Shown here piece by piece: positions 2 to 46,700 of a stretch of DNA of 64,000 nt. How positions within the stretch are numbered: the stretch's first letter is position 1; every line of letters starts with the position of its first letter. The stretch is from an uncultured Planctomycetia bacterium (lineage in GTDB: Bacteria; Omnitrophota; Gorgyraeia; 2-02-FULL-51-18): contig CAYSKO010000009.1 of the NCBI GenBank assembly GCA_964431835.1, positions 8,330 to 72,329 of the forward strand, written 5' to 3'. The position numbers and the translations under genes are program-made. The notes under the pieces are model-generated. The model saw nothing but the letters and a program-made list of their open reading frames with translations. It did not search any database and was not told where the DNA came from.

Positions 2-3000
2 GATTCCGCGCAGCGCGAGACCCGCCAGTACCGCGGCGGCTCGGCCGGCTCCTCCGTCATCTCCGCAACGATGAAACTGCAGACTTGGACCTATTTCAAG
101 GGCGACGCCGGCGAAGAGCGGACCGACTATCAGCAGAACTACAAGTCCAACGGCACCGACGTGCGGAACACGCAGATCAGCTATTACCAGGATCCCGCAG
201 GCGCCGCCGGCGGGCTCGTACGCGCGGCCGCGGCAGGCCCCGACGCGGCGCTTCGTGAGACGAAACTCTGGCGCGGCGGCACGCCGAATTCGGACACGAT
301 CTCCGCCACGATGAAGCTCCAGACGTGGACCTACTATCTCGGCGAGGTCAATGAAGAGAAGACGGATTATTCGCAGAATTACAAGTCGAACGGCACGGCG
401 GTGCGCAACACGACGCTCTACTACTACGAAAATCCGGCGGGCGCGGGTCTCGTGCGCGCCGTGGGCGCGAACGTCGACTCCGCACAACGCGAGACCAAGC
501 TCTACCGCGGCGGCACCGGCGGCTCGGCCGCCGTCTCGGCCGCGATGAAGCTTCAGACCTGGACTTACTTCCAGGGCCTTTCCGGGGAAGAGAAAACCGA
601 TTACGCGCAGAACTACAAGGCCGACGGCGCGGCCGTCCGTAACACGACGATTTCCTATTATGAGGACCCCGCGGGCGGCGTCGGCCTCGTGCGTGCCGTC
701 GCCGCGACCCCGGACACCGCGCTCCGCCAGACCAAACAGTGGCGCGGCGGCTCGGCCGGTTCCGACGCGATCACCGCCGCGATGAAGCTTCAAACTTGGA
801 TCTACTTCCAGGGCGTCGTCGGCGAGGAAAAGAACGACTTCCTGCAGAACTACAAAGCCAACGGCACCGACGTCCGGAACACGATGTTCTATTATTACGA
901 GGATCCGGCGAACGCCGCCGCCCTCGTGCGGGCGATCGACGCGAACGGCGATTCCGCCCAGCGCGAAACGAAGCTCTTCCGCGGTGGTGCCGCCGGATCG
1001 GACACCATCACCGCCGCGATGAAACTCCAGACGTGGTCGTACTTCAAGGGTCAGGTCAGCGAAGAAAAACTCGACTACGTGCAGAACTACAAGGCGGACG
1101 GCACGACGGTCCGCAGCACCGTGATCACCTATTACGAAGGTCCCACCGGCGGGCTCATCCGCGCCTCGGTCGCCGACGTCGACTCGGCTCAGCGCGAGAC
1201 CAAGAGCTGGCGCGGCGGCGTGGCCGGTGCCGACACGATCTCCGCCACGATGAAACTCCAGACTTGGACGTACTTCCTCGGCGAAGTAAACGAGGAGAAG
1301 ACCGACTACTCACAGAACTACAAGTCCGACGGCACGACGATCCGCAACACGACGCTCCATTACTACGAAGACCCCGCGAACGCCGCGGCTCTCGCGCGCG
1401 CGGCCACTGCCGGAGCGGACTCCGCCCAGAAGGAAACCAAGCTCTACCGCGGCGGCGCCACCGGCTCCGACGACGTCTCGAGCCTCAAGCTCCAGACTTG
1501 GACCTACTTCAAGGGAATGGCCAACGAGGAAAAGACCGATTACCTCCAGAATTACAAACTCGACGGCACCACCGTCCGGAACACCCAGCTTCATTATTAC
1601 GAGGACCCGGCGAACGCGGCGGGTCTCGTGCGCGCGACGGCCGCGGACGTCGATTCCGCCCAGCGCGAGACGAAGCTTTACCGCCGCGGCACCGCGGGCA
1701 CGGACGCGCTCGCCGCCAACATGAAGCTCCAGACCTGGACGTACTTCCAGGGTGTGGCGAACGAAGAAAAGACCGATTACGTTCAGAGCTATCGCACCGA
1801 CGGCGCCACCGTCCGCAACACGACGATCAATTACTACGAAGACCCGGCCAACCCGGCCGGTCTCGTGCGCGCGGTCGCGGCCAGCGTCGATTCCGCCCAG
1901 CGACAGACGAAGGTGTACCGCCTCGGAACGGCTGGCTCGGACAACGTCTCCGCCCTCAAACTTCAGACCTGGACCTACTTCAAGGGCGAGGCGAACGAGG
2001 AGAAGATCGATTACCTGCAGAACTACAAGTCCGACGGCGTCGGCCTCCGCAACACCCAGATCAATTACTACGCCGATCCCGCCGGCGGCACGGGCGTCGT
2101 TCGCGCCACGGCCGCGGACGTCGACTCCGCCCAGCGCGAGACGAAGCTCTGGCGCGGCGGCACGGCGGGCTCGGACGTCATTGGGGCGACGATGAAATTG
2201 CAGAACTGGAGCTACTTCAAAGGCGACGCGAACGAAGAGAAGCTCGATTATCTCCAAAACTACAAGGGCGATGGCACGACGGTCCGCAACACGCAGGTCA
2301 GCTACTATCAGGATCCCGCGAACGCTGCCCCGACGGCTCTCGTGCGCGCCGCCGGCGCCAACTCGGATTCCGCCCAGCGCGAGACGAAGCTCTACCGCCT
2401 GGGCACTGCCGGCTCGGACAACGTCTCCGCCCTCAAGCTGCAGACTTGGACCTATTTCAAAGGCGACGTGAACGAAGAGAAGACCGACTACCTCCAGAAC
2501 TACAAGGTCAACGGCACGACGGTCCGCAACACGACGATCTCGTACTACGAGGGCGCGACCGCCGCCGCCCTAGTCCGCGCCGCCGCCGCCGATCCGGACG
2601 CCGCGCTCCGCGAGACCAAGACGTGGCGCCAGGGCACGGCCGGCTCCGACACGATCGCCGCCACGATGAAGCTCCAGACCTGGACCTACATGAAGGGCTT
2701 CGTCGGTGAAGAGAAGACGGACTTCCTCCAAAACTACAAGTCGAACGGCACCGACGTGCGCAGTACGCAGGTCCACTACTACGAAGACGCGGTGAACGCA
2801 GCAGCCGTCGTTCGCGCCGACGTCGCGGGCCCCGACTCGGCAATGCGTCAGACCAAGCTCTACCGGAAGGGAACTGCCGGATCCGACAATGTCGCGAGCC
2901 TCAAGCTCCAGACCTGGACCTATTTCCTCGGGACTTCGGGCGAGGAGAAGACGGATTACCTTCAGAACTACCGCACCGACGGCGCGACCGTCCGAAACAC

Positions 3001-4700
3001 CCAGCTCCACTATTACGAGGATCCCGCCAATCCAGCCGCGCTCGTGCGTGCGACCGCAACGAACGTGGATTCCGCCCAGCGCGAGACCAAACTCTACCGC
3101 GGCGGCTCGGCGGGCTCCGACGACGTCTCTTCCTTGAAGCTCCAGACTTGGACGTACTTCAAGGGCCTCTCGGGCGAAGAGAAGGTCGACTACACCCAGA
3201 CCTACAAGTCGAACGGAACCGACGTCCGCAACACGACGATTTCCTATTACGAGGATCCCGCCAACGCCGCCGCCCTCGTGCGCGCTTCCACCGCCGACGT
3301 GGATTCGGCGATGCGCGAAACGAAACTCTACCGCCTTGGCACCGCCGGCTCCGACGACGTATCCTCCTTGAAGCTCCAGACTTGGACTTATTTCAAGGGC
3401 GATGTCAGCGAGGAGAAGGTGAACTTCGCGCAAAACTACAAGGCGAATGGTACTGACGTCCGCAACACCACCATTTCCTACTACGAGGACCCCGCCGACC
3501 CGAACGCGCTCGTACGGGCGGCCGCGGCGCAGGCCGACTCCGCGATGCGCGAGACCAAACAGTGGCGCGGAGGCACGGCCGGCTCGGACACGATCTCCGC
3601 CACGATGAAACTCCAGACCTGGACCTACTTCAAGGGCGACGTCTCGGAGGAAAAGACCCACTACATGCAAGCTTACAAGTCCGACGGGAGCGTCCGTTCC
3701 ACGCAGATCTACTATTACGAAGATCCTGCGGGCGGAAACGGTCTGGTGCGCGCCGACGTCGCGGGCGTGGATTCGGCGATGCGCGAGACGAAGATGTTCC
3801 GCCTCGGAACCGCGGGTTCGGACAACGTCTCTTCCTTGAAGCTCCAGACTTGGACATACTTCAAGGGATTCGCGACCGAAGAAAAAACCGACTTCGCGCA
3901 GAACTACAAGTTCGATGGCACGAGCGTTCGCTCGACGACGATCAGCTACTACGAGGACCCCGCGGGCGGGGCGGCTCTCGTGCGCGCGGCGCTGGCGGGC
4001 CCCGACTCGGCGCTTCGCGAGACCAAGATGTACCGTTTCGGTTCGGCGGGTTCCGCGGCGACGGGCGGGCTCAATCTTCAGACCTGGACCTACTTCAAGG
4101 GAATCTCCGGCGAGGAAAAGACCGACTACGCTCAGAACTACAAGCGCGACGGCGTCACGGTACACGGCACCACGATCTCGTTCTACGAGGACCCCGCAGG
4201 TGGCACGGGCGTCGTGCGCGCGGAGACGGCCAACGGCGACTCCGCCCTCCGCGAAACCAAGAGCTACAAGAACGGCACTGGTGGCTCGGACGCGATCGTC
4301 GCCGGTATGGATCTCTTGAGCTGGACCTACTTCAAGGGGCTTTCGAGCGAGGAAAAGAGCGACTTTTCGATCAGCTACAAGAAGAACAACGACGTGCGCA
4401 GCACCCAGATCACCTGGTATGAGGACGTGAACGGCGCCGGTCTTGTGCGCGCGGCCGACGCGGATGTGGATGCGGCGATGCGCGAGACGAAGCTCTACCG
4501 GAAGGGCACGACGGGCTCCGACAACGTCGCGAGCCTCAAGCTCCAGACCTGGACCTACTTCAAGGGCCAGATGAACGAAGAAAAAACCAATTTCTCGCAG
4601 TCTTACTGGACGAACGGAACGACCGTCCAGAACACGACGATTTCCTACTACGAGTCGAACCCCTCGGGCGGCGCGCCCGAGCGCGCGGCCCAGGCGTCCG
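2..4700 (+). repeat. Tandem array of about 20 copies of a 79-aa (237-nt) coding repeat; degenerate copies continue to about nt 5460
   Basis: The motif (M/L)KLQTWTYFKG recurs with its first codon at nt 71, 311, 545, 782, 1019, 1249, 1487, 1721, 1958, 2192, 2435, 2676, 2903, 3135, 3371, 3604, 3838, 4070, 4308 and 4535. Unit consensus: ...SAQRETKLYRGGTAGSDxISAxMKLQTWTYFKGxxxEEKTDYxQNYKxDGTxVRNTxIxYYEDPANAAALVRAxAADVD. Two subtypes alternate: xISATMKLQ with ALRETKxWRGG, versus DNVSALKLQ with SAQRETKLYRLG. The window starts inside a copy, so the array extends upstream. Confidence 0.85.
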
Positions 4701-7700
4701 GCGATCAGGCGCTCGTGCGCAGCGATTCCTTCAAGAAAGGCGCCACCGGCTCCGACAGCACCTCCGGACTCAAGCTTTCTGCCAAGAGCTTCTTCAAGGG
4801 CCTCTCGAGCGAGGAAAAGACCGACTACGCACTCAATTACAACGGTCCCGCGGGTCAGGAAGACGTGGTCTCTGAGACGACGTCCTTCTACGGGGAAGCG
4901 AATCCGAGCCCCGACTACCGCGCTCAGGATGCGTACCTCTACGATCCGATGAAGCGCACTGAAACCCGCATCGGTGGTTCGAATAACGGAACCAACGACG
5001 GCCGTAAACGCACGTTCTCGTACTTCACGGGCAGCTCGGGTGAAGAGAAGGTGCTCTTCACGCAGTCGTACACCTACGACCAGCTCGTGTACGAGACCAC
5101 GAAAAACGCGTACGACCCGAACGACGGCCGCATGACCGAGTCGACGACCTACCGCCGCGGCAGCGAGGGCGTCAGCACCGTGACGGGCCTCCTTAAGAAG
5201 AGCAAGACGGTGTTCGCCGGCGAAGAGAGTTACGAGAAGGTGCACGAGTCGTTCGCGTACCGTCCGAATGGGTCGCTCAAGAACCACACGCTGTCCGAGT
5301 ACGAGGGCGGCTTGCTTGCGACGAACCCGAACATTCCGTTCGAAGCGGCTCTCCGCCGCCAGCAGACCTTCTACGGCCCCGCCTCGGCAGGCCGCCGCGT
5401 GAACGAATCGGTTTATCTCGGGGACTGGAGCGAGGAAAAGATCGACAGGATCACCGATTATAAAGGCGTCGTCACTCAGCACTATTACGACGGGTTCTTC
5501 TTCACTCCGGCCGGCGGCATGATGATGCCGAACGCCGCGCAGCCGAACAAATACGAGCTCGTCACGCGCACGGAGATCATCGGAAACGGCGACGTGAGCT
5601 ACTTCGGCATCAACCAGTTCAAGGAATCGCAGCAGAAATTCCAGACCGACTACAAGGGCACCATCACGACGTACGTTTATGATGCTTCCGACGTGCTCGT
5701 GAAGACGTCGGCCATCCAGACTGTTGCCCGCGCGATCGGCCTCGCCGGCTTCGTGCCGGAGCAGTCGGAGCTCGCGACGTTCTTCGAGCGCGATCTCTAC
5801 CTCGACACACGCGCCGTGTTCTCGACGAACGGCCTCAACAATATCACCTACAACCGCTACGACGGCGGCACCGGCGACCTCTTTTACACCATCGAGGTGA
5901 CGAACGCCTTCGCGGGGGCCGTCGCCGCCGTGAAATCCGCACCGGCCTCGATCGGAGCCTTCATTGGCGGCCTGACCGGCAACCCCGACACGTTCGTCCC
6001 CTCGGGCGGCCTCGGCGTGAACAAGATGACGAAGACTTACATGGAGTACGACCCCGACGACGGCACGACGCGCGCCTCGTTCCAGTTCAGCCCCAGCGGC
6101 AAGCGCATCGCCTTCACCTACGAGAAGATCATCCAGCCGACGTTCCCCGATGCGTCGAAGCGCTACCGCACGCTCGTGACGCGCACCTCGATGGGCATCG
6201 CCTCGACATTCGATTCGATCACGATTCAGAACAAGTACGGCCGCGTGACCGAGACCATCGACGCGGGCGGTATCTTGAGCTACTCGTACTACGTCCCGCC
6301 GCCCGGCCTGTGGGGTGTGCCGCTTAACGAGCAGACCTCGGTGCTCAATACGATCACGAAGTCGGATCTGAACGGCAAGACTCTCCAGACCCTGCAGACC
6401 GAAGTCTGGAACAACCAGGTCCCGATGTCCAACGAGATGGGCGAACAGGCGTTCAACACGCAGATCCTGACGCGCACCGAGTACCGCTATATGGAAGATC
6501 CGAGCACGGGCCTCCTCATCACCGCCGAAGCGGAGACCTATGCGGGCACGATTCGCATCCGCCGCCAAGTGTTCGACCAGTACATGCGCGTCACCGAAAT
6601 CTACGAGTGGCTGCCGACCGAAAACGGCCAGAAGCTGTGGGGCTTGGCGCAGAAATTCACGTACTACACGCCTCCGGGATACGGCCAGTTGAACCTGGGC
6701 GCCGGCGGGATGCTTCCGATGCCGACCAACGCGATCGCCTCGATCGTGAATGGCGGCGCGGTGAACGTCGGCGGCAACCTCGGCGGCGCTTCGCTGACCG
6801 GCGATGCGCTCACCGCGTGGGCCCTCAAGATGATCAACGCCGGCGACGCGTGGAGCAAGTACCAGACGATGGGTACGGGCGTCACGATGGCGATCCTCGA
6901 TTCGGGCTTCAACCTCGATTCCACCGCGGTCTGGAGGAACGCCGCGGAAGCTGCGGGCCTGCCGGGCGTCGACGACGACGGCAACGGCTACATCGATGAC
7001 GTCGACGGCTGGAACTTCGTCGCCGGCAACAACGACGTCTCGGACAAGCTCGGCCACGGCACGAACGTTGCTCGTGCGGCGCTGGCGGCGGCTCCCGGGG
7101 CGAACGTGATGCGTCTCAGCGTTCTCGACGAGTTTGGCCGCGGCACGGTCGAGAAGATCGCCGAGGGCATCGTCTACGCGGCCCGCAACGGCGCGAAGGT
7201 CATCAATCTTTCGATCGGCGGCGGTCTCCTCGACCTCCAAAGCTTCGGCATCGTCCGGACCGCGATCGAGACCGCAATGCAGATGGGCGCGCTCATCGTC
7301 GCGGCCGCCGGCAACCAGGGCAAGGAAGTCGATCCGTACTCGATCGCCGCGATCCAGGGCGTCATCGGCGTCGGCGCCAGCGACCAGGCAGACAAGAAGA
7401 GCGCTTTCTCGAACGTCGGCGGCAACGTCCGGATCGTAGCGCCTTCCGAGAGCGGCACGTCGATGGCGGCTCCGCTCGTCGCCGGCGCGGTCGCGCTCCT
7501 TATGAGCAAATATCCGTACAAGTCCACCGAAGAGATCCGCGGCCTACTCGAAGCGGGCGCGGTCGACCTTGGCGTTCCGGGCTTCGACCGTGAGACCGGC
7601 GCGGGCCGCCTCGATGTTGGCCGCTCTCTCGCCCTCGCGGCGCTTGGCGGTCCGATTTCGCCGCTCGCTCCCCAGGGTCCCGGCCCCGGCGGCTCTCCCG

Positions 7701-10700
7701 TTCCTCCGCCCGCGGGCGGCGAAGACCGCGGCGATCTCCTTTCGGCCCAGGATGGCATTGAGAGTGTCGAGATCACGATGCCCGAAGGCGGCAAGATCCG
7801 TTTCCCCGAAGGCGGCACGGTCGTCAAGAAGGGCGCCACGATCGTTGTGTCGGCCAACGGCGAGATCTCGGTCGAACCCGGCGAGGCCGTCACGCTGATC
7901 GGTGCCGCGAAACTCTTCCTGGTCGGCCCCGCGCTTATCCGCTCGCTGAACAACAACGTCGTTCTCACGTTCCCCAACGGCGGCGCGGTAAACCCGCCCG
8001 CGAAGCAATTTATCCCCGTGAGCGCGGGCAGCAGCGTCGGTCTCGAGGCGGGGGCCAAGCTTTCGTTCAAGAGTGGCGGCACCGTCACCGCGTCGGGCTA
8101 CGCGCGCGTGCGCCTGACCGCCGCCGGCACGCTGACCTTCGCGAACGCGACCCGTGTGATCCACAAGGGCTCTCCGATCATGGTCCCCGCGGGCGGAACA
8201 CTCGCGCTTGACGAGAACGAAGAGGTCATCATGCCGGACGGCGGCAAGGTGACCCTACCGTCGGCCGGAAGCATCCAGGCGGGCGAAACCGCGATCAACG
8301 TGACGCTCAACTCCGCGGCCGAAGTCGCACTCGAGGAGCAAGCGAGCGCCACGATCAAGGACCGCATCTCGAACATGTCTCTCGATGCGGCCAAAACTTC
8401 CGGCGTAATGTACATCGCTGGAAGCGCCCTCACGCTCGACCCGAACACCCGCGTGTACGGCTTGACTGGCCTGCCGACCACGCTTGCGGAGCTCGAGACG
8501 ACGTACCTCGACAACCGTCAGCGTACCTATCTCAAGTTGCTCGTCTCGAAGGACTCGTATGGACAGTGGCGCGCGGACCGCATCGATATGGTCCCGGCCC
8601 CGATCGAAACGACCGCGGGCCAGATCGACAGCCTCTACAACCCGAACGGTCTGAGCGTCCTGCCCGGCGTGCTCGACGGCACGAACGCGGCCGCCGGATT
8701 CGTGCGCTTCAACGACAACGATATCCGCGTGCTCGAGAGCACGATCATCAAGGACGCGAAGGGGAACACGATCACGGGCACGACGGCCGAGAAGATCGCC
8801 GTCCTCGAGCGCATCCGCCTCGAGGCCGAGGCCGACGGCATGATCCCGACCGTGAAGCTCGTCGCCACGAAGTCGGCCGACGGCTGGCAGGCTCTCCAGA
8901 TCCTCGTGACCACGAACCAGCCGACCGATCTCAACCCGACCCGGTTCACCGGCGCGATCACGGCGATCGATATGGCCAAAGGCGAGCTCACCTTCGACGG
9001 TAAGAAGATGACGTTCGACGCGGGCACGTTCATCGACAGCGTCACGGGCGAAGCGATGGAAGCCGCAGCCCTTAAGGCGTTCTTCGACGCGAACGTTTCT
9101 CGCAGCGTCGGTACTTTCGCGAAAGTCAACGCACGCCGCATCAACGGCGAATGGAAACTCGAGCGCATCGGCGTCATCTCCGACAGCGAGGGCGACGCGA
9201 AGCTCTTCGGCACGCTCGAGCTCGTGACCATCGGTGTCGCGCCAGCTCCGACGACAGTCAAGATGAACGGAAAGACGTTCACGCTCGACGCGACGGCTGA
9301 GCTTCTCGACGCCAACGACGCGCCGATCACTGCGCAAACTTTGAGTTCGATCCTCGGCCAGCAGGCGCTGGAAGGCGTCGCGACGAAGATCGATGTGAAG
9401 CTGAAGGCGACCCCGTCCGGCGTGAAGATCACGTCGCTCCGCACGCGCACCCGCCTGCAGTCGACGCTGAATCACACCGCGCAGGTCGTCTCCGTCGTGA
9501 TCGATCCGAACGACCCGACGAAGGGCACGATCGACTTCGGCTCGGGCGTGGTCGCGACCGTGGACGCCGGGACGGTCCTTCGCGACTCGCGCAGCCGCAC
9601 GATCACGCTCGCCGACCTGAAGCCCGAAGATTACGTGCAGATCCGCCTCGTGCAGACTCCCGAGGGCTGGCACGCCGAGCGCGTGACGATCTCCGACGGC
9701 GCCGCGCCGGTCAGCTCCATGACCGGCCCCGTCAACTCCGTGAACGTGAACGCCAACACGCTTTCGATCGCCGGCGTCACCGTGAACGTTTCACAGGACG
9801 CGACCGTCGAGGACGTCGAAGGCCGCATTTTCCCCGGCGGCCTCGCCGATCTGAGCGCCCTTCTTCAGGCCGGCCAGGTCCGCGTTTCCATCAAACTCGC
9901 GCTTCGCAACGGCCAGTGGATCGCGGACCGGATCGTCGTGCAAAGCGTCTCCGCGAAGGCGACCGAATTCGCCAGCTCCTCCATCCAGGCCGCGCACCTG
10001 ACGACGGACGCGCAGGGCAACGTCGTTTCGATGACGGTCAACGGCGAGACGGTGCGGGTCGGAAACGGCGGCACCGACGGCTTCTTCACGCGCGTCGAAC
10101 TGAACTACAAGGATCTCACCGACGTCGCCGGTCTCCAGCGCATCGGCATCCGCACGGACGCCAATTTCCCGGTGAATGACCCGATGTACACGGCCGTCAA
10201 GGGCCTGAACGGTCTTCTGACCGGAGCTTCGCCCACCATCGTCGACCCGACGACGCCCGTCACCGTGAACGTATACGCGGTGAAGGTCGGAAACGAGTGG
10301 CGCGCCTCGAAGGTCGTCGCCCGCACGATCGACGAACTCGCGGGCGGCCCCGGTTCGACGCTGAACGGCCCGCTCGAGGGGGTCGATCTCGACCGGCAGA
10401 TGATCACGATCAACGGCCAGTCGATCGTCGTCTTCAACCCGATGGCCGTCTTCGACGCTAACGGAGAATCCTACTCGCTGGCGGCCCTCAAGGAACTCTT
10501 CGAGGCCAACCGCCTCCGCGGCATCGAGACATACCTGAACGTCAGCTCCGCGCGCGGCTACAACCTGCAGACGAAGGCGATCGGCCACGGCCAGACGGCA
10601 ACGATCAAGAAGACCGTGACGGTGGCTCGTGACTCCAAACTCTCGTTCAACTGGAAGGTTTCCTCGGAAGCCAACGACAAATTCAGCTTCTTTATCGACG

Positions 10701-13700
10701 GCGTTCGGGTGGGCGCCGGCATCGGCGGCGAGATCGACTGGGCGAAGGTGACGACCGACCTCTCGGCCGGCGATCACGTCCTCGAGTGGAAGTACGTGAA
10801 GGACGGCGCCGTTTCGGCTGGTCAGGACGCGGCATGGCTCGACGAAGTGTTCATCAAAGCGAACACCGTCGACGTCGCGCACGGCGAGCCGCTTTCCGCG
10901 TTCGGCCGCATCGCGCTGCCGCCCGACTTCTCCTCGCCGTCCGACAATCCGTTTTACCTCCAGTCCGACACCGCGCGCGATTCCGGCGGCTGGGCCGCGC
11001 AGGCCGGGCGCGTGGAGATCGGCCAGACGAGCACGATGCAGCGTCAGGTCACCGTCGGCGCTCCGACCACGATGAGCTTCTGGTGGAAGGTCGATTCCGA
11101 AAGCGGCAACTCGTTCAATTTCTACGTCGACGACTTCGCGACGCCGGTCCGCACGGTCTCGGGCCGGAACGGCGGCTGGCAGCTCGTGACGGTGGATCTC
11201 TCGGCCGGCGCCCACACGCTTCGCTGGTCTTATAAGAAAACCGCCGCGAACGTCTCTTCGCAGGACACGGGTTGGATCGACGACCTCCGCATCGGCGACG
11301 AGGTCATCGACCGCTCGTTCAACCACCCGCAGGGCGTGCGTGCGCCGCTGCCGTCCGGATGGACGACGGGCGCCGCCGTTTGGACGAACCAAAACATTCT
11401 CGCTTCTGACGCGGCCGGCTTCGCGCTGCAGGCCGGCTCGACCGCGGCCGGAGCTACGTCGTACGCCGAGAAGACGATGACGCTCGCCGCCGCGGGGCTC
11501 CTGCGCTTCAAGGGCCGCCTTTCCTTGCCCGCGACCGACAAGCTCCTCCTTTACGTGGACGGCGCCGCAACGCCGGCGGTTACGATCACCGGAACCGCCG
11601 GCTGGATCGACTCGGGCGACCTTTCGCTTGGCGCGGGCGCGCACACGCTGCGCTGGGTATTTGACCGCTCGGGCACCGTCGGCGACGCGAGCGACGGCGC
11701 CTGGCTCGACGAAGTTTCCGTCCGCTACCCCGTCGCCACCGAAGCCTTCTCGTATCCCGCGGGTACTTCGCTTCCGCTACCCGCCGCCTACACGGTCGCC
11801 GGTGCGGGTTGGGCCAACCAAAACTCCGTTTCGTACGACAACGGCGGTTGGGCCGCGCGCGCGAACGCCACCGCCGCCGCCGCGAAAGCTTCGATGACGC
11901 GCACGCTCGACCTTCCGGACGCGGGGACCTTCAAGTTCCGCTGGAAGATGGAAGACGCACACGCCAACGACAAGATGAACGTCTACATCGACGGCGTTCT
12001 CCGCGCGACGCTCGCCGCCGCCGACGGCACGGCTTGGATCCAGAAGTCTTTCGACCTCGCCAAGGGCGAGCACACAGTGAAATGGGAGTACGACCGGACG
12101 ACTTCCGCCGGAGCCGCCTCGAACGACAAGGTGTTCGTCGACACGATTGAGGTCGGGACCGACCGCACCGAAACCTTCACGTATCCCGCGGGCACGGAAC
12201 TTCCGCTCCCGGCGGCCTTCACCACCACCGGCGGTTGGGTGAACCAGAACGCGGTCACGGTCGACATCAACGATTTCGCCGCGCGCGCGGGCTCGACGGC
12301 GGGCGGCGCGAAGTCTTCGATGACGAAGACCCTCACGCTGGACGACCCCGGTTCGGTCACGTTCAAGGTCCAGATGCAGGACCTGCACGCCAACGACCGG
12401 GTTCGCTTCTACGTGGACGGCGTTCTCAAGACCACGCTCTCGGCTGCCGACGGCGCGGGTTGGCTGCAGCGGACGGTGACCGGTCTTTCGAAGGGTTCCC
12501 ACCAGCTCAAGTGGGAATACGATCGCTCCGGCACCGCGGCGACCGTGCCGGCCAACAACAAGGTCTTCGTCGATCAGGTCGACGTCACACACGACCTCTA
12601 CTCCGAGACCTTCTTCTACCCGCCGGGGACGGAGATCCCGCTGCCGACGGGTTTCGTGACCAACAACTGGGTGAATCAGAACACGACCTCGTTCTCGGCC
12701 GGCGGTTTCGCAGCCCGCTCGGGCGACGTCGAAGCCGGCGCAACCTCCTTCATGACGCGCTCGTTGACGCTGACGAATCCCGCTTCGATCAAGTTCAAAT
12801 GGAAGCTCGAGGACGTTTCGGCGACCGACCGTCTGCATCTGTACGTGGACGGCCAACTTCGTGCGACGCTCGATCCCTCTGAGACCGGCTGGCTCGACCG
12901 CGCGGTTGCAATCGACAAAGGCACCCACGAGGTGAAGTGGATGTTCGACCGCAGCGGCACGGCGGCGGGCGGGTCGAAGAACAAGGCCTTTGTTGATCTC
13001 GTCGACGCAACCTACGATCCATTCACCGAGACCATGGTTTATCCCGCGAATACCGTCCTCGGACTTCCCGCGGGCTACACGACCGTCGGCGGATGGAAGA
13101 GCCAGAACAACGTCGCTTTCGACACGGGCGGCTACGGCGGGTTCGCCGCGCAGGCGGGGTCCACGGCCGCGGGCCAGACGACTTCGATGTCCAAGACCGT
13201 GACGATGCCGCAGGCCGGTAAGATGACCTTCCGCTGGAAGTTGGCGGGCGCCGCCGTGGGCGACAAGTTCAAGGTGCTCGTCGACGGCGTCGAACGTACG
13301 GCGAACACGCTCTCCGCCGACGCGGATTGGGCGCTCGTGACGCTGGACGGCCTTTCCGCCGGTGCGCACGAGATCGTTTGGGCCTATGAGCGGTCCGCTT
13401 CGGCTGGTTCGGCCAACGACCAGGCCTACGTCGACGAGATTGTCGCCACCGTCGAACGGACCGAGACTTTTATCCACCCCGCGAACACGGAGCTCGCTCT
13501 TACCGCCGGTTACGCCGCCACGGGCGCGGGCTGGGTCCTTCAGAATACCGTCGCCGCGGACACCACGCCGTTCGGCGGCTGGGCCGCACGTGTGGGCGCG
13601 ACCGCGGCGGGCGCCTCGTCGGGCCTCAAGAAGACGTTCAATTACGCCGCCGCGACCAAACTTTCTTGGCGCGTGAAGCTCGGCAGCCTCGCCACGGGCG

Positions 13701-16700
13701 ACAAGTTCAAGATCTTCGTGAACGGCGTCGAGAAAACCGCGCTGACGCGCGAGGCCAACACCGACTGGACGCTCGTTTCGCTCGATCTCGTCTCCGGCGC
13801 GAACGAAATCGAATGGCGCTACGAGCGCGCGGCCGGCGCTTCCGCTTCGAACGACCAGGCTTATATCGACGACGTGCTCGTCGCCATCACCAAGACCGAA
13901 GGGTTCTCCTATCCTGCGGGCACCGAGCTGGCCCTGCCGGCTGGTTACACCATGACGGGCGGCTGGAAGAACCAGAACAGCGACGCTTACGACGCGTTCG
14001 GTTTCGCAGCCCGCTCGGGCGCGATCGCCGCGGGTGGCAACTCGACGCTCACCAAGAGCGTGAACCTGGCGGCCGCCGGGAAGGTTTCCTTCCGCTGGAA
14101 GCTCGCCGGCGCGGTCGCGGGCGATACCTTCAAGATCCTCGTCGACGGCGTCGAGCAGACGGCCAAGACGGTGACGGCAGACACGGCGGGCTGGGTGCTC
14201 GCGACGGTGGATCTCGCCGCCGGCGCCCACAACCTCCAGTGGCGCTATGACCGCTCCGCTACGGCCCCGGTCTCCAACGACGGCGCGTACGTCGACGATA
14301 TCCGCGTCTTCACGGTCGGCACGTACGACCAGGGCTTCGTCAATACCACGCTTCCCTCGGACTTCTCGACGTCGACCAACAACTATGCTTCTGTCGACGT
14401 CGATGAGAACCAGGACCACGGCACCAATTCGAACTCGGTCCGCTTGTACGGCGGCTGGGACTATTGGACCCAGGGTGCGGCCTCCATCACGAAAAACGTC
14501 ACGCTCGATCAGGCCGGAGAAGTCAGCTTCTACTGGAAGACGGACATGCAGGGTTCGAGCGACTGGGCCAAATTCTACGTGGACGGCGTGCAGAGCGCGC
14601 AGGTGACGGCGGTGAGCCAAGACTGGACGCTCGTCACGATCAACCTGACGGCGGGCACGCACGCGCTGAAGTGGGAGAACAATAAAGGCATGTGGTCGTC
14701 CACCGGTCAGACGTGGGTGGACGACATCCAGATTACGAGCGCGCAGGTGGCCGGCTTCGAGGACGCGTTCCAGCCCCCGGCGTACGAGCCCTCGTTCGAT
14801 CCGCTCTCCGGCACCTGGTCGATGGCCGCCGCGGGTGCCAACAACACCGCGTACAAGGATTCCGGCACGGGCGAATGGAGCTACCACTCGTCGCAGCTCC
14901 AGGGCCAGACGGCCGAAAACGGCACCGTCGAGGCGCGCATCAAGGTCGACAGCACGAACACGAGCTACAACGATATGGCCTTCCTTAAATTCCGCATGTC
15001 GGCCGACGATTCGACAGGCTACGCGGTAAAGGTCGGACGCGACGATTACGTCTACCTGTACCGCATGGAGTCCGGCTCGTACACTCAGATCGGCAGCGCC
15101 TATCTTGGGGCCTCTTACGACGGGACGCAGTTCAACGACGTGAAGGTCTCGTTCAACGGTTCGGCGATGGAGGTGTTCGTGAACGGCACCTCGCGTATCA
15201 CCACCAGCGATTCGACCTACTCCGGCGCGAACAACAAGTCGGTCGCCGTGGGCACGTTCCACACGGGCGCTCCGATCTGGTTCGACGACGTGAAGGTTGT
15301 CGACGCCAAATTCTTCGATACGTTCACCCAGAAGAAGGACGCTCCGTTCACGCCCGGATCCGGGAACTGGGAATCCGCCGTGGACACCAACGGCAATGTC
15401 GCCTACCGGATCAAGAATATCAACGACGGCAATTACCACCGGTCCGTGTTGAACGGCGCTTCGGTGACGAACGGCGACGTGAGCGCGAAAATCCGCCTCG
15501 CGGGCTCGGCCGGATCGTGGAACTCGGACTACGCCTTCCTTTATTTCCGCACGAACGAGGACGCGTCGAGGGGCTACGCGGCGAAGATCGACGTGGACAA
15601 AAACCTCGTCCTCTACCGCTACGACAACGGCAGCTGGTGGGCGCTTTCGAGCGTGAACCTGGGCGCGTCGTACGACCCCGCGCTGTACCACGAGATCAAG
15701 GCGCGTCTCGACGGCGACTCGATCAAGATCCTCGTCGACGGCGTGGAAAAGACGAGCGCGACCGATTCCAACTTCACCGGCGCGGAATACGACGGGGTGG
15801 CGGTCGGCAACTACTACACGAGCGGCGACGTCTGGTTCGACGACGTGAAAGCGGTCGCCGACGAGGCTGTCGGAACGTTCTCGCAGGTGAAGGCCGCGCC
15901 CTTCAACGTATTGTCCGGCACCTGGGCGACGAAGAACGAGAACGGGAATATCGTCTACCGCGTCACCGACACAAACGTTTGGGACTTCCGCCGGAGCCTA
16001 ATGGAGGACATCGCCGTCAAGACCGGCGTGTACCAGGCGAAGATCCGGATCGACGGCAACAACTTCAATTACAACGAAAACGGCTACCTCTACTTCCGCA
16101 TGTCGGACGACGGTTCCACCGGCTATGCGGTCGAGCTCGACAAGAGCCGCAATTTGATTCTCTACCGCGTGACCAACGGCAGCTACCAGGCGCTCGCGTC
16201 GACGACGCTCGCGGTGCCCTTTAACCCGCAGGCCTTCAACACGCTGAAGGTCGAACTCGGGGACGCGGGGCTCATGAAGGTCTACGTGAACGGCGCGGCG
16301 ACCGCGTCGCTCACCTTCAGCGACGCGACCTACTTCACGGACGCCAACGTGCGCGTCGGCGCGGGCAGTTACCACACCTCGATGGGCGTGACGTTCGACG
16401 ACTTCTACACGGAGAACGCCTCCGTCCTCAAGGAAGCGTTCGACCGCATCAAACCCTTCCCGTTCACCGCCCTATCGGGAACCTGGACCACGCTGGACGC
16501 GGGCGACGGCAACAAAGGCTACGCGCAGACGGGGACGGGGAACAATTACCGCATGGCCCGCATGGACGGCAAGATCCTCACCGACGGCATCCTGCAGGGC
16601 GACGTGAAGCTGAACGGCACGAGCGCGACGGACGAGGCGCACTTCATGTTCCGCATGGACGCGAACTTAAACAACGGTAACGCGGTCGGCCTCGACCGCG

Positions 16701-19700
16701 CAGGCAACCTGCGCCTCTACCGGGTGACCAACAACGGCTGGGGTCCGAGCTACCAGGAGATCAGGAAGGTCGTCCTCGCCGGCTTCAACCCCGCGCTCAA
16801 GCATAACCTTAAGGTCGTGGTCCGCGACGAGACGGTGACCGTGTTCGTGGATGGCGCCACGGCTCCCACCCTCACGTACACGGACGAGACGAGCGACTAC
16901 ATTTATTCGGGCGCCTCGCAGACCGGCGTCGCCCTCTCGACTGTCAACCTGACGGGCGCGGCGATCTTCGACGATTTCGCGGCCACGAAGGACCCTGCGC
17001 GCGATAATCTGAATCCGGTGAAGCCCGTCCAGTTTACGCCGCAGCAGGGCACGTGGGGCATGGCGGACGACGGCAATGGCAACATCGCGTATCGCGAAAA
17101 GAAAATCAACGACTGGAACGCCCACCTCGCGTACATCGAAGATCTCGAGGCCGAGGACGGCGAGATTGAGGCAAAGGTCCGCATCGACGGCCGCGCGGCG
17201 AATTCCACCGACGCCGCCTACGTGTACTTCCGCACCGACCAGTGGCGCGGCAACGGTTACGCGGCCCGCATCGACGTGGACGGCCTCGTGAAGCTCTACC
17301 GCTACAGCGGCAATTCCTACACCGAGATCGGTACCGCTTCGCTGGGTGCCTCGTTCGATCCGGCGCTCTACCACACGCTGAAAGTCGCCTACGACGGCTC
17401 GGACATCCGCGTGTCCGTCGACGGCGTCCAGAAGATCGCCGTCGACGACGACACTTACGCCGGCTCGAGCTACGTGTACGCGGCGATCGGGACCCAGAAC
17501 ACGAGCGGCCCTGTGTGGTTCGACGACGTGCGCGCGAACTTCACGCCCGTGCGCGACAACTTCACGAAGCTGAGTGCGGTGAACTTTACTCCCGTGTCCG
17601 ACGGCGGCCGCTGGAAGCAGACCGACGACGGCGGCGGGCTGTGGCGGTATTCCCAGACGCGACTGGATACCCAGCGCCACCTCACTCAGATGAACGGCGT
17701 TTCGGTGACCGACGGCACGATCCGCGCGTCGGTGCGCATCACGGGCACCGATTCGACCGACGCCGCCTACGTGTACTTCCGCATGAACTCGCAGCTTTCG
17801 AACGGCTACGCGGTCTCGATCTCGCGCGACAAGTCGATCCGCATCCACCGGATGTTGAACGGCGTGTACACGACGCTGAAGACGGTGTCGCTCGGCGCGT
17901 CGTTCGACCCCGCGGCGTTCCATAATCTCCGCATCGAGACCGAGGGTGCGATGATCAAAGTGTTCGTCGACGGCGCCGCGCAGCCGGCCGCTCACATCAC
18001 CGACACGACGTGGTCCGGCGCCTCGCAGGCGACGGTCGCGCTTGGCACGCACGACCTCTCGGGCGCCGTTTCCTTCGACGACGTTTCCGCCACGAAGGCG
18101 CCGCAGGTCGACGACCGCTTCACGCTCACGCCCGCTGTCACCGGCTTCACGCCGCTCGCCGACCAGGGCGACTGGAAGGCGATGGACGACCGCACCAACG
18201 ACTTCAAGTACGTCCAGACGAAGGTCGACGGCCTCGTGCACCGCGCGCAGGTCGACGGGGCTTCGACGCTGAACGGCGACGTCACCGCGAAGGTGCGCCT
18301 GGACGGCAAAGGCGAGGCGATGATCTTCTTCCGGAACGCCGCCGACCTGAAATCCGGTCTCGTCACCTCGCTCGACGCCGACGGTCGCCTGCACGTCTAC
18401 AGTTACACGACGGCCGCCAACGGCACGATGACTTTCACCGACGTGACCGCTCCCGTCCAAATGCCCGCTTCTTTCGACCGCTCCGCCTACCACACGATCC
18501 GCGTCTCGATGGACGGCGGCGTGGTTCGCGTGTTCGTCGATGGCGCGCAGAACCCTTCGTCGACGTACGTCCACTACGATATCCGCAATGAGTCCTCGGC
18601 GTCCACGCAGGTACTGATCGGCACGCGCGGCGCCGAGTCGTTCGTCTGGTTCGACGACGTGAAGGTCGAGAAGAATACGAGCTGGAAACCGGTCTACGCC
18701 GGCCCCGCGACTTCGCCGCACCAGATGTTCCACTTGGAGAAGGCCGCCACGGGCACGCAGATCATGCCCGACGGATTCGAGACGACCGACGCCCTCGTTC
18801 AGAATAAGACGAGCTCCAACTGGGTCGCCAACGGCGTCCTCATCAATCCCGCCGGCCGCCGCGCGGTGGTCAAGAGCGCCCTGTCGGGCGTCGACCAGGG
18901 CGAGCAGACCCTCCGCTTCGGAGACCAGGTCATCTCGATGAAGGATGTCCGTGTGTTCGTGAACGGCCAACTTACCGATCTCTCGACGCTCCAGGGGAGC
19001 TTGAGCGAAGCCGCGGCCAACGACGAAGTTCTCGAACTTTCCTCCGACACCCTCATCAAGCGCGAGCGGAACGGCCGGTGGACGCCGTTCGTCAATTTCG
19101 TGAACCTGAGCCGCCGCTCCCGCACCGCGAAGATCGCCTCCGATTCACCGATCGAGGACGTCGTCGTGGGTACTTCGACGATGCGGATCGGCGACATGGA
19201 CGTGCGTATGCCCGACGGGTGGCGTGTGAACTTCTATCCGTGCGCGATCGGGCAAGGTTGCATGCCGACGCAGATCTCCTCGATCACGGCGCTCCGACAG
19301 AAACTCCTCGAGATTCAGGCGGACCGCGCCCGTGCTGTCCTCGAGGACGCGCAGGACCTGCGCCGCACGTCCTCCGGCGAGTGGACGTTCGGCAATTCCA
19401 CGATTGACCTCCGCATGACCGCGACTCCGGCCACGACGCTGGCGGTAGGCAGCCTGCTCGCCTCGGTCGACGACGGCCCCGGGAAGACGTTCTCCACCAC
19501 GGACGGGACTCCGATCAAGACCGTGGGACGCAAGGCCTGGTGGTACAACAACGGCCAGTACGAGGAAATCAGCCTCACGTCGCTGAAGAACAAGCTCGCC
19601 GCGATCCAGGCGGCCGGAGACCGCATCCGCGTTGACGGCCAGTACGGTAACCAGAACGGGCACCTGCTTCGCGAGAATGCCTCCGGCGATTGGGAGCTCA

Positions 19701-43700: not shown

Positions 43701-46700
43701 GCGACACCGGAGTTTACCGTCTGAACGCCGACGGCACCGTCCACTACTCGGGGGGAATGGTGGGCGGGACGTACAACCGTCCGTCCACCCTGACGCATTA
43801 CACCGCCGAGGGAAGCGGGGTCTGGAGCTTCGAGTTGTCCGCCGCCGGCCCGCCAGCCGCCGGTCAGCTGTACTTCATCGCTGCGGACACGACCACAGGC
43901 CCGACGACGGCCTCGCACCGAACGATCGCCACGCTCTACAACCTTTCGTCCGTGAACGGGAGCAGCAATTTCGCGAACTCCGACACGAATTTCCGTTACA
44001 CGTTCCAAGCCGACGGCACGGTCCTCGCGACGGACGTCCGCACCGGCCGCTCTCAGGTGGGCACGCTGAACGCCGCCGGAAACGGGGTTACGTGGAATGA
44101 GAACGCTTCGCCGCGGGCTCCCGCAGGCGGCGGTCCCATCGCGGTGACGTTGCCGGGCAACGACACCGTCACGCTGACCGGCGGCACGAGCGGCTTCCGC
44201 ATCACCGAGAACGGCACGGCGATGACGACCGAAGACATGATTTTCGCGGGTCCCGGCGGCCAGAGCCAAGTGCTCCGCCGTGGTGCCGAACTCAGCCTTT
44301 CGAACGATACAAACCACAACGTTAGCATCATCTCGGGCGTGATGGAATTCAACGGCGGCGCTTCCGCCAATCTCCCGAACGGCCACCTTCAGACCATCCA
44401 GCCTCCGACCCCGCCCGCCGAAGGGGACACGAGCAACGACCGGAATCAGGCCTCCGGCCCTACGACTAGTTCCCCCGGCCTCAACACGACTATCTCGCGC
44501 GACCCCGGCGGCCGCCTTCGCCTCACGGGCTCCATCGCGATCCAGAACAATCAATTCGTGATCACCGAAGGCCAGCGGATCAATATCAATACCACCGGCG
44601 ACTTCCGCTTCGGCGACCGGGCGATGACCCAGCAGGGCTCGTTCATGTTCGCGCGCCTCACCGAGCCCGATCCGAAGAAGCGCGAAGCGAACCCGAATCG
44701 CAACCAGCGCGCCGAGATCGTGACGCTCGGCGACTGGCAGTCGAACCAGCGCGCGCACCTGAGCCACACGTTCCCCAAGGAAGGCGCGACCGGGCTCCAG
44801 CGCCATTACAAGACTGAGGCCGAAAACGCGATCAACGATGGCAACGCCTCCCGCGCAAGCGCCGCGATGAACATGATCAGCGCCGCGGGCCAGGCCTACG
44901 CCATCCGCGAGCTTTCGGGCAGCGGCGCCCGAGAGCTTAACGACGTCGCGCAGAGCGGCACCTTCAACAACTTCGGGTACAATGACGTTCTCACCGAAAT
45001 GGACGAAGCGCAGCTTGCGCAAATCATCGGCGGCAACCGCCAGTTCGCCGCGTTTGTCGGGACTTATATGACCCTCCGCGGCATCCACCAGCAGCAGGAA
45101 GCTCACAAGGACGACGACGACGTGAAGGCCCAGCGCGCGCAGTTGGCCGCCATCGGCTTCAACCTGAGCAGCGACTACGATTGCGCCCGCTTGGCGCAGG
45201 CTCTCTCGGAGCCAGACTCCATGCTCCGCATCGAAGTGGGAGGCACGAGCCGCTACCTCCGCACCAAGGACGTCGAGGTCGGCGGCAAGAAACTCGAGAA
45301 GTGGGTCAAGGACGCTTCCAGCGACCTGCGCACGTGGTTCGACGAAAAGGCCTACGAAGAGAACGGTGGCAGCGGCAGCAAACTCACGTGGTGGGACCGC
45401 AACAAGTCGTACGTGTACATCGTGGGCGCGATCGCGCTCGCCGCCGCCACCTGCTGGATCCCGGGCGTGAACGTCGTGACGGCCTCCATCGCCGCGGGCG
45501 TCGCGTTCACGGTCGCGGTCGTGGCGCAGGTCGTCGCGAAAGGCCTCGACAATCTCCGCAAAGGCAACGGCTTCTTCACCGGGATGGCGACGGAGTGGAA
45601 TTGGAGCCCGATCGATAAGAACGGCATCCTTTTCAACGCAATCAACGCGGCCGCGCAGAGCTTCGCGCTCGCCAACGGCCTTGCGGCGCTGGGCCAGCTC
45701 GTGAATCACATCAAGTCCGCCGCCGACGTCGCAAAGAACGCGGGCCAAACGCTGACCACCGTGCAGCGCGTGGCGACCTCGGTGCAGGCCATGGGCACCG
45801 TGACCCGCGCGGTCACCTTGGGCCTTACGTTCGCCGCGGCGAACGTGGCGATGACCGTCGGTGCGCAAGCCGTCGAGAACATCCTGAGCGGGAAGGATAT
45901 CGGGCACAAGATCACGGCCGGAATGGTGTGGACCGCCGCCATTCAAGGTTTCGTCGTGGGCGTCACGGCGGGTTACGGCGCGAGAATGTACGGCGCGAAA
46001 GAGGCTTTCGCCAAGGCCACCGCGGGAATGCTCACGCGCGGCGCCATCACCAACGGCGTCATCGCGACCGCTCGCGCGGTTCAGTACGGCGTGATGTTCA
46101 CGGTGCCGTCCATGATCATGTGCGGTCTCGGCTTCCTCCTGGCCGCGGAAGTAGGCGCCGCGGCGGACGGCAAGACTCTGACCACGACCGACCGCGTCAC
46201 CGCGTTCGTCTCCGGCGCGATCGTCGGCATGATCATCAACTACGCGACCTCCCACAAGGCGACCGCGAAACTGAACGATTTCGCCAAGAACACCGGCAAG
46301 CTCGGAAGCGAATCCGGCAAAGGATTCCGGGACGGCGTCAAGTGGACCTACCAGCAGGGCTCCGCGTGGCACGTCACGAAGACATTCGGTCTGGGCGCCC
46401 TGGAGTGGGGCACGATGGTGTCGGTTCCGTTCACGATCGCCAACGGCCTCGTCGACGCGATGAAGAACGGGTTCGCCAACGGCGGTGGCATCGCGGGCGC
46501 CCTCAAGGGCATCATCGGCTGGTTCCACCCGATGACCGGCTTCACGATCCGGGGTCCGAGCGGCAAGCAGGACGATCAGGTCCGCATCGGTTCGCGCCAC
46601 GGCCTCGGCATGCTCTCGAACGCGATGACGCACGGCTTCATGGAAGGCCTCTATCTGAAGCCCATTCTCGGCGCCTTCCAGAAAGTGCACACGGCGCCCC

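Follow-up and report, generated by a model that had tools for sequence, protein, structure and literature searches.

A propeptide-less, single-copy subtilisin-like domain within a bacterial reading frame of at least 21,333 codons

Giant bacterial proteins raise a simple question: do they work as one chain, or are they cut into pieces? An intact-looking internal protease is an obvious candidate for the cutting, and one is encoded in the stretch of DNA studied here, 64,000 nucleotides of contig CAYSKO010000009.1 (assembly GCA_964431835.1, positions 8,330 to 72,329 of the forward strand; hereafter the window, numbered from its first letter). An earlier note on this DNA had described a live S8 subtilase at 6790-7650, embedded between repeat arrays of a giant surface protein, and had suggested that it might process that protein or degrade the envelopes of host or prey cells. 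The suggestion restates published speculation: West-Roberts et al. 2023 (bioRxiv 10.1101/2023.11.21.568195) described S8 and C39 peptidase domains in giant Omnitrophota proteins and proposed that these domains cleave both the proteins themselves and other substrates.

The subtilase lies where the note had placed it and, judged by its sequence, nt 6815-7657 is a genuine single-copy S8A serine endopeptidase domain with a complete set of catalytic residues. In a hidden Markov model (HMM) search, Pfam family PF00082 matches aa 2291-2535 (nt 6872-7606) with 126 bits (cut-off 21.8) and E 1.9e-36, and the match spans profile positions 1-288 of 288. When 251 related domains are made into a profile, it gives aa 2271-2546 of the host protein 279 bits, and run with all filters off it detects no second S8 domain in the 21,333 aa. 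The domain and its catalytic residues are as follows:

6815..7657, + strand: S8A subtilisin-like catalytic domain, aa 2272-2552 (Pfam, AlphaFold2, Foldseek)
6899..6901, + strand: GAT, catalytic Asp D2300 (= BPN' D32), motif DSG in AILDSGF, invariant column
7055..7057, + strand: CAC, catalytic His H2352 (= BPN' H64), HGTN in LGHGTNVA, invariant column
7313..7315, + strand: AAC, oxyanion-hole Asn N2438 (= BPN' N155), in AAAGNQG, invariant column
7460..7462, + strand: TCG, catalytic Ser S2487 (= BPN' S221), GTSMAAP in SGTSMAAP, invariant column

The codons that had been named for Asp, His and Ser (6899, 7055 and 7460) are exact. In a MAFFT alignment of 21 sequences (the S8 domain, 19 database relatives and subtilisin BPN') all three fall in invariant columns with the BPN' triad, and the Asn claimed for the oxyanion region aligns with BPN' N155. 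The set D/H/N/S is kept in 247 of the 253 domains of a larger domain-level alignment, and HMMER alignments to solved BPN' variants pair H, N and S identically. The strands G100-S101-G102 and S125-L126-G127 of BPN' hold residues P1-P4 of the substrate; both are retained here, as GRG and SIG. The motifs DSG, HGT and GTSMAAP are of the S8A type, not of the kexin type.

The predicted structure points the same way. An AlphaFold2 run on aa 2133-2700 with a 79-sequence alignment gives a predicted local distance difference test score (pLDDT) of 95-98 across aa ~2272-2552, and the model predicts a subtilisin alpha/beta fold with high confidence. Foldseek searches of the Protein Data Bank (PDB) retrieve subtilisins at E ~1e-20 with template modelling (TM) scores of 0.80-0.85, normalised to the target, and the top scores belong to 1SUC and 1SUA ('calcium-independent subtilisin by design').

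Between the Asp and the His lies an acidic loop that the earlier note had also reported:

6971..7000, + strand: DDDGNGYIDD insertion, aa 2324-2333, probable calcium-binding loop

The insertion is the rule among the relatives, whose consensus at this place is GVDDDGNGYIDD. Plasmodium SUB1 presumably binds calcium at the equivalent insertion, and by analogy DDDGNGYIDD is probably a calcium-binding loop; it aligns with the solved structures of SUB1 (4LVN, 4TR2, 8POL) and of deseasin MCP-01 (3VV3).

Because the triad and the oxyanion Asn are homologous to those of known subtilisins, the fold is confidently predicted and DDDGNGYIDD is conserved, we do not regard the S8 domain as a decayed relic, and that it is a live protease is well supported by sequence. 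The earlier verdict of 'live, not relic' therefore stands in its second half, but its first half carries a caveat: the domain has no propeptide, no calcium-A loop and no beta-hairpin ahead of the catalytic Ser.

These departures from ordinary subtilisins set the domain apart, and two of them are deletions that can be placed to the residue:

7088..7093, + strand: junction of A2363 and A2364 at the calcium-A loop deletion, nine residues (BPN' 75-83) missing after the His helix
7442..7453, + strand: 'PSES' junction where the pre-Ser beta-hairpin is missing, 14 residues (~BPN' 203-216) between VAPS and ESGTS

The short form of the calcium-A loop is common to 14 of the 251 closest domain instances and, as the alignment has it, is a natural, minority state. 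The best PDB sequence matches are engineered Δ75-83 calcium-free BPN' variants, since the S8 domain is without the same nine residues. In BPN' this deletion abolishes the high-affinity calcium site and greatly speeds up both folding and unfolding, and a normal mature subtilisin deprived of its prosegment folds extremely slowly (PMC4865297).

The second deletion is rarer. Across BPN' 200-220 the S8 domain has 7 residues, against a minimum of 16 and a median of 30 in the 251 relatives, and in none of the other proteins among the 272 checked do His and Ser lie as close together as here (135). AlphaFold2 closes the gap with a direct strand-turn-helix link at pLDDT >95. We take the BPN' hairpin at ~203-216 to be a two-stranded element that leads into the catalytic Ser and borders the S1'/S2' side of the cleft; by analogy, a cleft that lacks it may be more open, or otherwise changed, on the primed side. 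Two smaller departures accompany it: a four-residue gap takes the place of the usual 'HPDL' after the Asp, and the usual HGTH reads HGTN.

The propeptide was sought in three ways. Pfam gives no I9 or Fervidolysin_NPro match; upstream of the S8 domain the AlphaFold2 model is of low confidence and does not have the beta-alpha-beta-beta-alpha-beta topology of a propeptide; and hhalign of aa 1950-2277 against a profile of the N-terminal pro-regions of 103 relatives returns a probability of 0.1%, where five held-out relatives used as controls return 95-98%.

What protein does the domain belong to? The forward-strand frame from 2 to 64000 holds 21,333 codons and not one stop, and it is open at both window ends, as the giant protein of the earlier note requires. 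The S8 domain is native to this single protein, whose length is 21,333 aa or more, and the host gene is longer than 64 kb. Stops in the other five frames of the window number 42-872, and a stop-free run of this length has, from base composition, a chance of ~1e-236. The GC content of the window is 64.6%; at third codon positions (GC3) it runs at ~0.72-0.88 along the host frame, mostly ~0.86, with a minimum in a coiled-coil-like tract near nt 54000, and in the S8 region it is 0.861, the same as in the flanks. We discounted the long antisense open reading frames that overlap the S8 region, among them 2570-7240 on the minus strand, as shadows of a gene with high GC3.

The surroundings of the domain, with the array layout taken from a self-comparison of the host protein, are these:

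2..4951, + strand: repeat array 1, at least 21 clear units of 76-80 aa, to ~aa 1650, exceeding the window's 5' end
aa ~1800-3450 (~1,650 aa): non-repeat stretch that holds the S8 domain
6698..6802, + strand: Gly-rich disordered linker, aa 2233-2267, AlphaFold2 pLDDT <50
7670..7759, + strand: Pro/Gly-rich disordered linker, aa 2557-2586, AlphaFold2 pLDDT <50
10349..14701, + strand: array 2, ~150-aa period, aa ~3450-4900, weak CBM35-like and CE2_N-like matches, first array downstream of the S8 domain
14699-18661, + strand: array 3, ~seven units of ~190 aa, aa ~4900-6220, 3-keto-disaccharide hydrolase PF06439 at E 6e-27, Laminin_G_3
45467-45538 and 46091-46147, + strand: membrane-helix-like hydrophobic segments, aa 15156-15179 and 15364-15382, from hydropathy

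The description 'embedded between repeat arrays' thus holds only roughly: there are arrays on both sides, but the domain itself sits in the non-repeat stretch, 1.9 kb from the closest clear repeat unit, with array 1 clear to ~aa 1650 and the next array starting at ~aa 3450. The units of array 1 are up to 76% identical, and degenerate copies give self-matches as far as ~aa 1800. Alternate units make a super-repeat of ~156 aa. A model of five units (AlphaFold2, pLDDT only 51, used for secondary structure only) shows beta strands only, four to the unit; each of them closes with a Y/W-x-x-(D/G)-G turn that looks YD/Rhs-like by eye only, and Pfam RHS_repeat gives no match to the array. With aa 1-900 as query, no homologue of array 1 turned up among 5.8 billion proteins. 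A degenerate pattern of two successive units has 0 matches in GTDB species genomes, and its sole match in the JGI metagenomes (L002) was set aside as chance, being of 47.6% GC and showing no blastn or tblastn similarity.

Array 3 consists of lectin-like tandem modules with a faint likeness to the carbohydrate-binding module (CBM) of levanase, CBM66, and several further arrays lie downstream of it. Immediately after the Pro/Gly-rich linker comes a beta-rich segment (aa ~2579-2650) of eight strands of 4 or 5 residues at pLDDT ~78-83. The linker itself contains an RGD tripeptide (nt 7727-7735, + strand, aa 2576-2578), probably by chance. Neither flanking linker shows a recognisable cleavage-site motif.

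A simple hydropathy scan of the 21,333 aa finds only the two membrane-helix-like segments listed above. The S8 domain lies ~12,600 aa upstream of them, on a long N-terminal arm, and the segments separate a beta-rich, Cys-poor N-terminal part from a C-terminal part of other character. Cysteines number only 22 in the 21,333 aa, and the first of them is at aa 6414. Four close pairs (C-x2-6-C) fall in the middle arrays, at aa 6414/6420, 7696/7699, 7802/7807 and 9158/9163, and could be disulfide or metal sites. Two features lie beyond the hydrophobic segments:

51704-52021, + strand: transglutaminase-core domain PF01841, aa 17235-17340, 24 bits, barely over the cut-off
~54000-57150, + strand: coiled-coil-like tract of ~1,000 aa, rich in E/A/K/R/T, aa ~18000-19050

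The transglutaminase-core has its triad of Cys (C17290, 'GVGVCRQKA'), His ('GGHAW') and Asp ('FDPTW') and may be a second protease or a cross-linking module, placed across the membrane-like segments from the S8 domain. The coiled-coil-like tract has a codon-position GC of ~0.72/0.50/0.75, unlike the rest of the frame. The Pfam content of the window comes to S8, 3keto-disac_hyd, Laminin_G_3, Transglut_core and weak CBM-like matches; Pfam finds no SecA_DEAD (at E <= 0.01), dockerin/TSP3, glycosyltransferase or C39 domain in the 21,333 aa.

Searches for relatives separate the domain from its host. A HMMER scan of 1.84 billion representative proteins collects 93,674 S8 relatives, of which the best reaches only ~50% identity. 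The nearest are S8 proteins as long as ordinary or multidomain members usually are (300-3,400 aa, mostly 400-1,700 aa), and the longest among the top 150 has 6,948 aa. The named ones come from Chloroflexota, Bdellovibrionota, Actinomycetota and Cyanobacteriota. When the region around the domain (aa 1800-3400) is used as query in a word-indexed homology search, the 2 matches are both to the S8 part only. Apart from a handful of generic domains, the host protein shows no detectable homologue in the protein collections that were searched. Several more specific assignments were tried and rejected on family scores: mycosin of type VII secretion (TIGR03921; 98 bits against an equivalog cut-off of 278.75), membership of the QhpE leader peptidases (NF049966; 78 bits against an equivalog cut-off of 165) and, on NCBIfam scores, the SGO_0316 family (21 against 1400 bits), dentilisin PrtP (56 against 300 bits) and the PatA/G family.

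How might such a domain act? Our leading reading, which takes in its activity and to which we give an even chance, is of a tethered active protease that cuts proteins in trans on the surface or matrix to which the arm is bound. The S8 domain would fold without a propeptide, helped by the missing calcium-A loop, and calcium at the DDDGNGYIDD loop probably stabilises it. It would then work as an endopeptidase held by flexible tethers within the long all-beta N-terminal arm. The arm is presumably extracellular, being almost Cys-free and fitted with carbohydrate-binding-like modules; its display outside the cytoplasm is the natural reading of the sequence. Such cleavage would resemble that by cell-envelope-anchored subtilases, and the domain may clip its own linkers as well. 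We place trans action first because the relatives do not resemble enzymes dedicated to processing, the solved structures closest to the domain are those of degradative subtilisins, and the neighbouring modules are binding-like.

Several points weigh against the tethered protease. The extracellular placement comes from composition and domain types alone, the true N-terminus, any signal sequence and the export route lying outside the window. The sequence does not separate action in trans from action in cis. Protein searches found no orthologous giant protein that could show purifying selection on the triad. Finally, a pre-Ser segment as short as this one occurs in 0 of the 251 relatives, and by analogy with BPN' the loss of the hairpin could impair or re-tune catalysis.

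The best-surviving alternative, possible although we hold it as tentative, is that the domain is a built-in maturase, cleaving in cis, possibly once, at the upstream Gly-rich junction and/or the downstream Pro-rich linker; an N-terminal repeat arm of >2,200 aa would be freed from a membrane-anchored remainder, or a polyprotein cut into working pieces. Position favours it: the Gly-rich linker would lie where the canonical propeptide/mature junction lies, since D2300 minus 31 residues, as in BPN', gives ~aa 2269, and the end of the linker would then correspond to the universal cis autocleavage site of subtilisins. However, there is no propeptide-like fold to seat the upstream strand in the cleft, and neither linker carries a recognisable cleavage-site motif. 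The compact, propeptide-less S8 domain is colinear with the 219-position profile of QhpE, an enzyme that works in a single turnover (PMC7876137), but the match is the one that fell far under the family cut-off. A maturing role for the S8 and C39 domains of giant proteins was suggested by West-Roberts et al. 2023, and there is one S8 domain per polypeptide; against this stand the same relatives and structures that favour the degradative side. Trans action and cis self-processing are not mutually exclusive.

A more pointed version of self-processing strikes us as unlikely. It would make the domain a naturally minimised, propeptide-free subtilisin with an opened S' side, serving as the cis (possibly single-turnover) maturase of a giant protein that is otherwise an orphan, is anchored in the membrane and comes from a high-GC lineage other than Omnitrophota. 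If it were true, a cut at the Gly-rich junction would release or rearrange the YD-like beta-repeat arm (>2,200 aa).

Improbable, in our judgement, is a catalytically impaired module that has kept its triad while the hairpin and calcium-loop deletions weakened proteolysis, leaving a binding or structural role in a fibre. The absence of the hairpin in this domain alone, as compared with 251 relatives, speaks for it, together with HGTN for HGTH, the missing 'HPDL' and the lack of any orthologue that demonstrates constraint. It has to contend, however, with the retention of all four catalytic residues and both substrate-binding strands, with pLDDT >95 at the shortened connection and with the fact that engineered Δ75-83 subtilisins are active and have been crystallised; pseudo-enzymes, moreover, are usually without at least one catalytic residue. 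Very improbable, finally, is an artefact in which a separate, ordinary S8 gene was drawn into the 64-kb frame by mis-assembly or chance: repeat arrays can mislead assemblers, and an exact 63-mer of the S8 region is unmatched in GTDB species genomes and JGI metagenome contigs, but a separate gene would require an upstream stop codon where the 21,333 codons hold none, GC3 is high window-wide with the S8 region like its flanks, and the domain lies in non-repetitive sequence well away from the clear repeat units.

That an S8 domain should occur in a giant protein is already known, and this one adds an example, not a principle. Some aspects may strike a specialist as mildly surprising: the domain is a natural counterpart of the engineered calcium-loop deletion that lets subtilisin fold on its own, it has undergone a hairpin loss seen in no close relative, it is without a propeptide, and the repeats and flanks of its host protein have no detectable relatives among billions of sequences. 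Since it is small (~280 aa), propeptide-free and set between flexible linkers, it should be easy to express and to assay for cleavage of its own chain as opposed to activity in trans.

Known systems share parts of this arrangement. With subtilisin BPN', Savinase and Carlsberg (S8A) the domain has in common the fold, the D/H/N/S order and motifs and the substrate-binding strands, and in the engineered calcium-free BPN' variants (1SUC, 1SUA, 1GNV, 1DUI) exactly the same nine-residue calcium-A loop is absent. It differs from the BPN' group in being only ~30% identical, in having no propeptide, in the extra DDDGNGYIDD and in the absence of the hairpin at ~203-216; and whereas those enzymes are secreted as pre-pro-enzymes, the S8 domain sits inside a polypeptide of 21,333 aa or more. 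In Plasmodium SUB1 and deseasin MCP-01, too, an insertion of the form 'GVDDDxNGxxDDV' separates Asp from His, a comparison confined to the D-to-H segment; unlike the S8 domain, both have propeptides and normal hairpins and are stand-alone secreted proteins.

The surface subtilases carry an S8 head on a long beta-rich stalk: lactocepin PrtP, C5a peptidase ScpA and the SGO_0316-type LPXTG proteins among them, and the autotransporters SphB1 and NalP. Anchored to the envelope, they cut proteins in trans or mature other surface proteins, and their S8 domain sits near the N-terminus, behind a propeptide. QhpE (NF049966) is likewise compact from the His to beyond the Ser, 180 residues of the S8 domain corresponding to 181 profile positions, but it belongs to an unrelated pathway, in which it works on its own in the cytoplasm. 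It is a leader peptidase of subtilisin type, limited to a single turnover, that processes and does not degrade (PMC7876137).

The giant Omnitrophota proteins of West-Roberts et al. 2023 are alike in combining a subtilisin domain, repeat arrays and carbohydrate-binding-like modules in one chain of tens of thousands of residues. Their Archaeovorin and Dockerin-type classes, in contrast, have many transmembrane regions and a divergent SecA DEAD helicase, where the window has two membrane-like segments and no SecA_DEAD; the other class domains (glycosyltransferases, methyltransferases, NUDIX and glycoside hydrolases, or dockerin/TSP3) were not detected in the window, and the published description puts those S8 domains at the N-terminus, whereas at least 2,290 aa precede the one here. 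The tie to Omnitrophota that the earlier note had implied is not borne out by these comparisons: the class-defining domains are absent from the window, which also holds no marker gene, and none of the named S8 relatives is from Omnitrophota. Proteins of >10,000 aa are known from the literature in Planctomycetota, Verrucomicrobiota, Actinobacteriota, Myxococcota and other phyla as well.

A comparable architecture is that of the 6,948-aa relative (P0230, from JGI 3300017613), in which S8 lies deep in a very long Laminin_G_3 protein and which is 39% identical to the S8 domain. Its gene is the following:

L001 3001-23847 (JGI 3300017613, Ga0186781_1423033): P0230, Laminin_G_3 and three S8 domains

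Two T2SS-F-type genes precede this gene, and a >2,085-aa S8 protein with a Fervidolysin-type propeptide follows it. P0230 differs from the protein described here in its three S8 copies, in their normal-length hairpins and in its visible neighbouring genes, of which the window shows none. It provides a precedent for very long, lectin-bearing proteins with S8 domains inside them.

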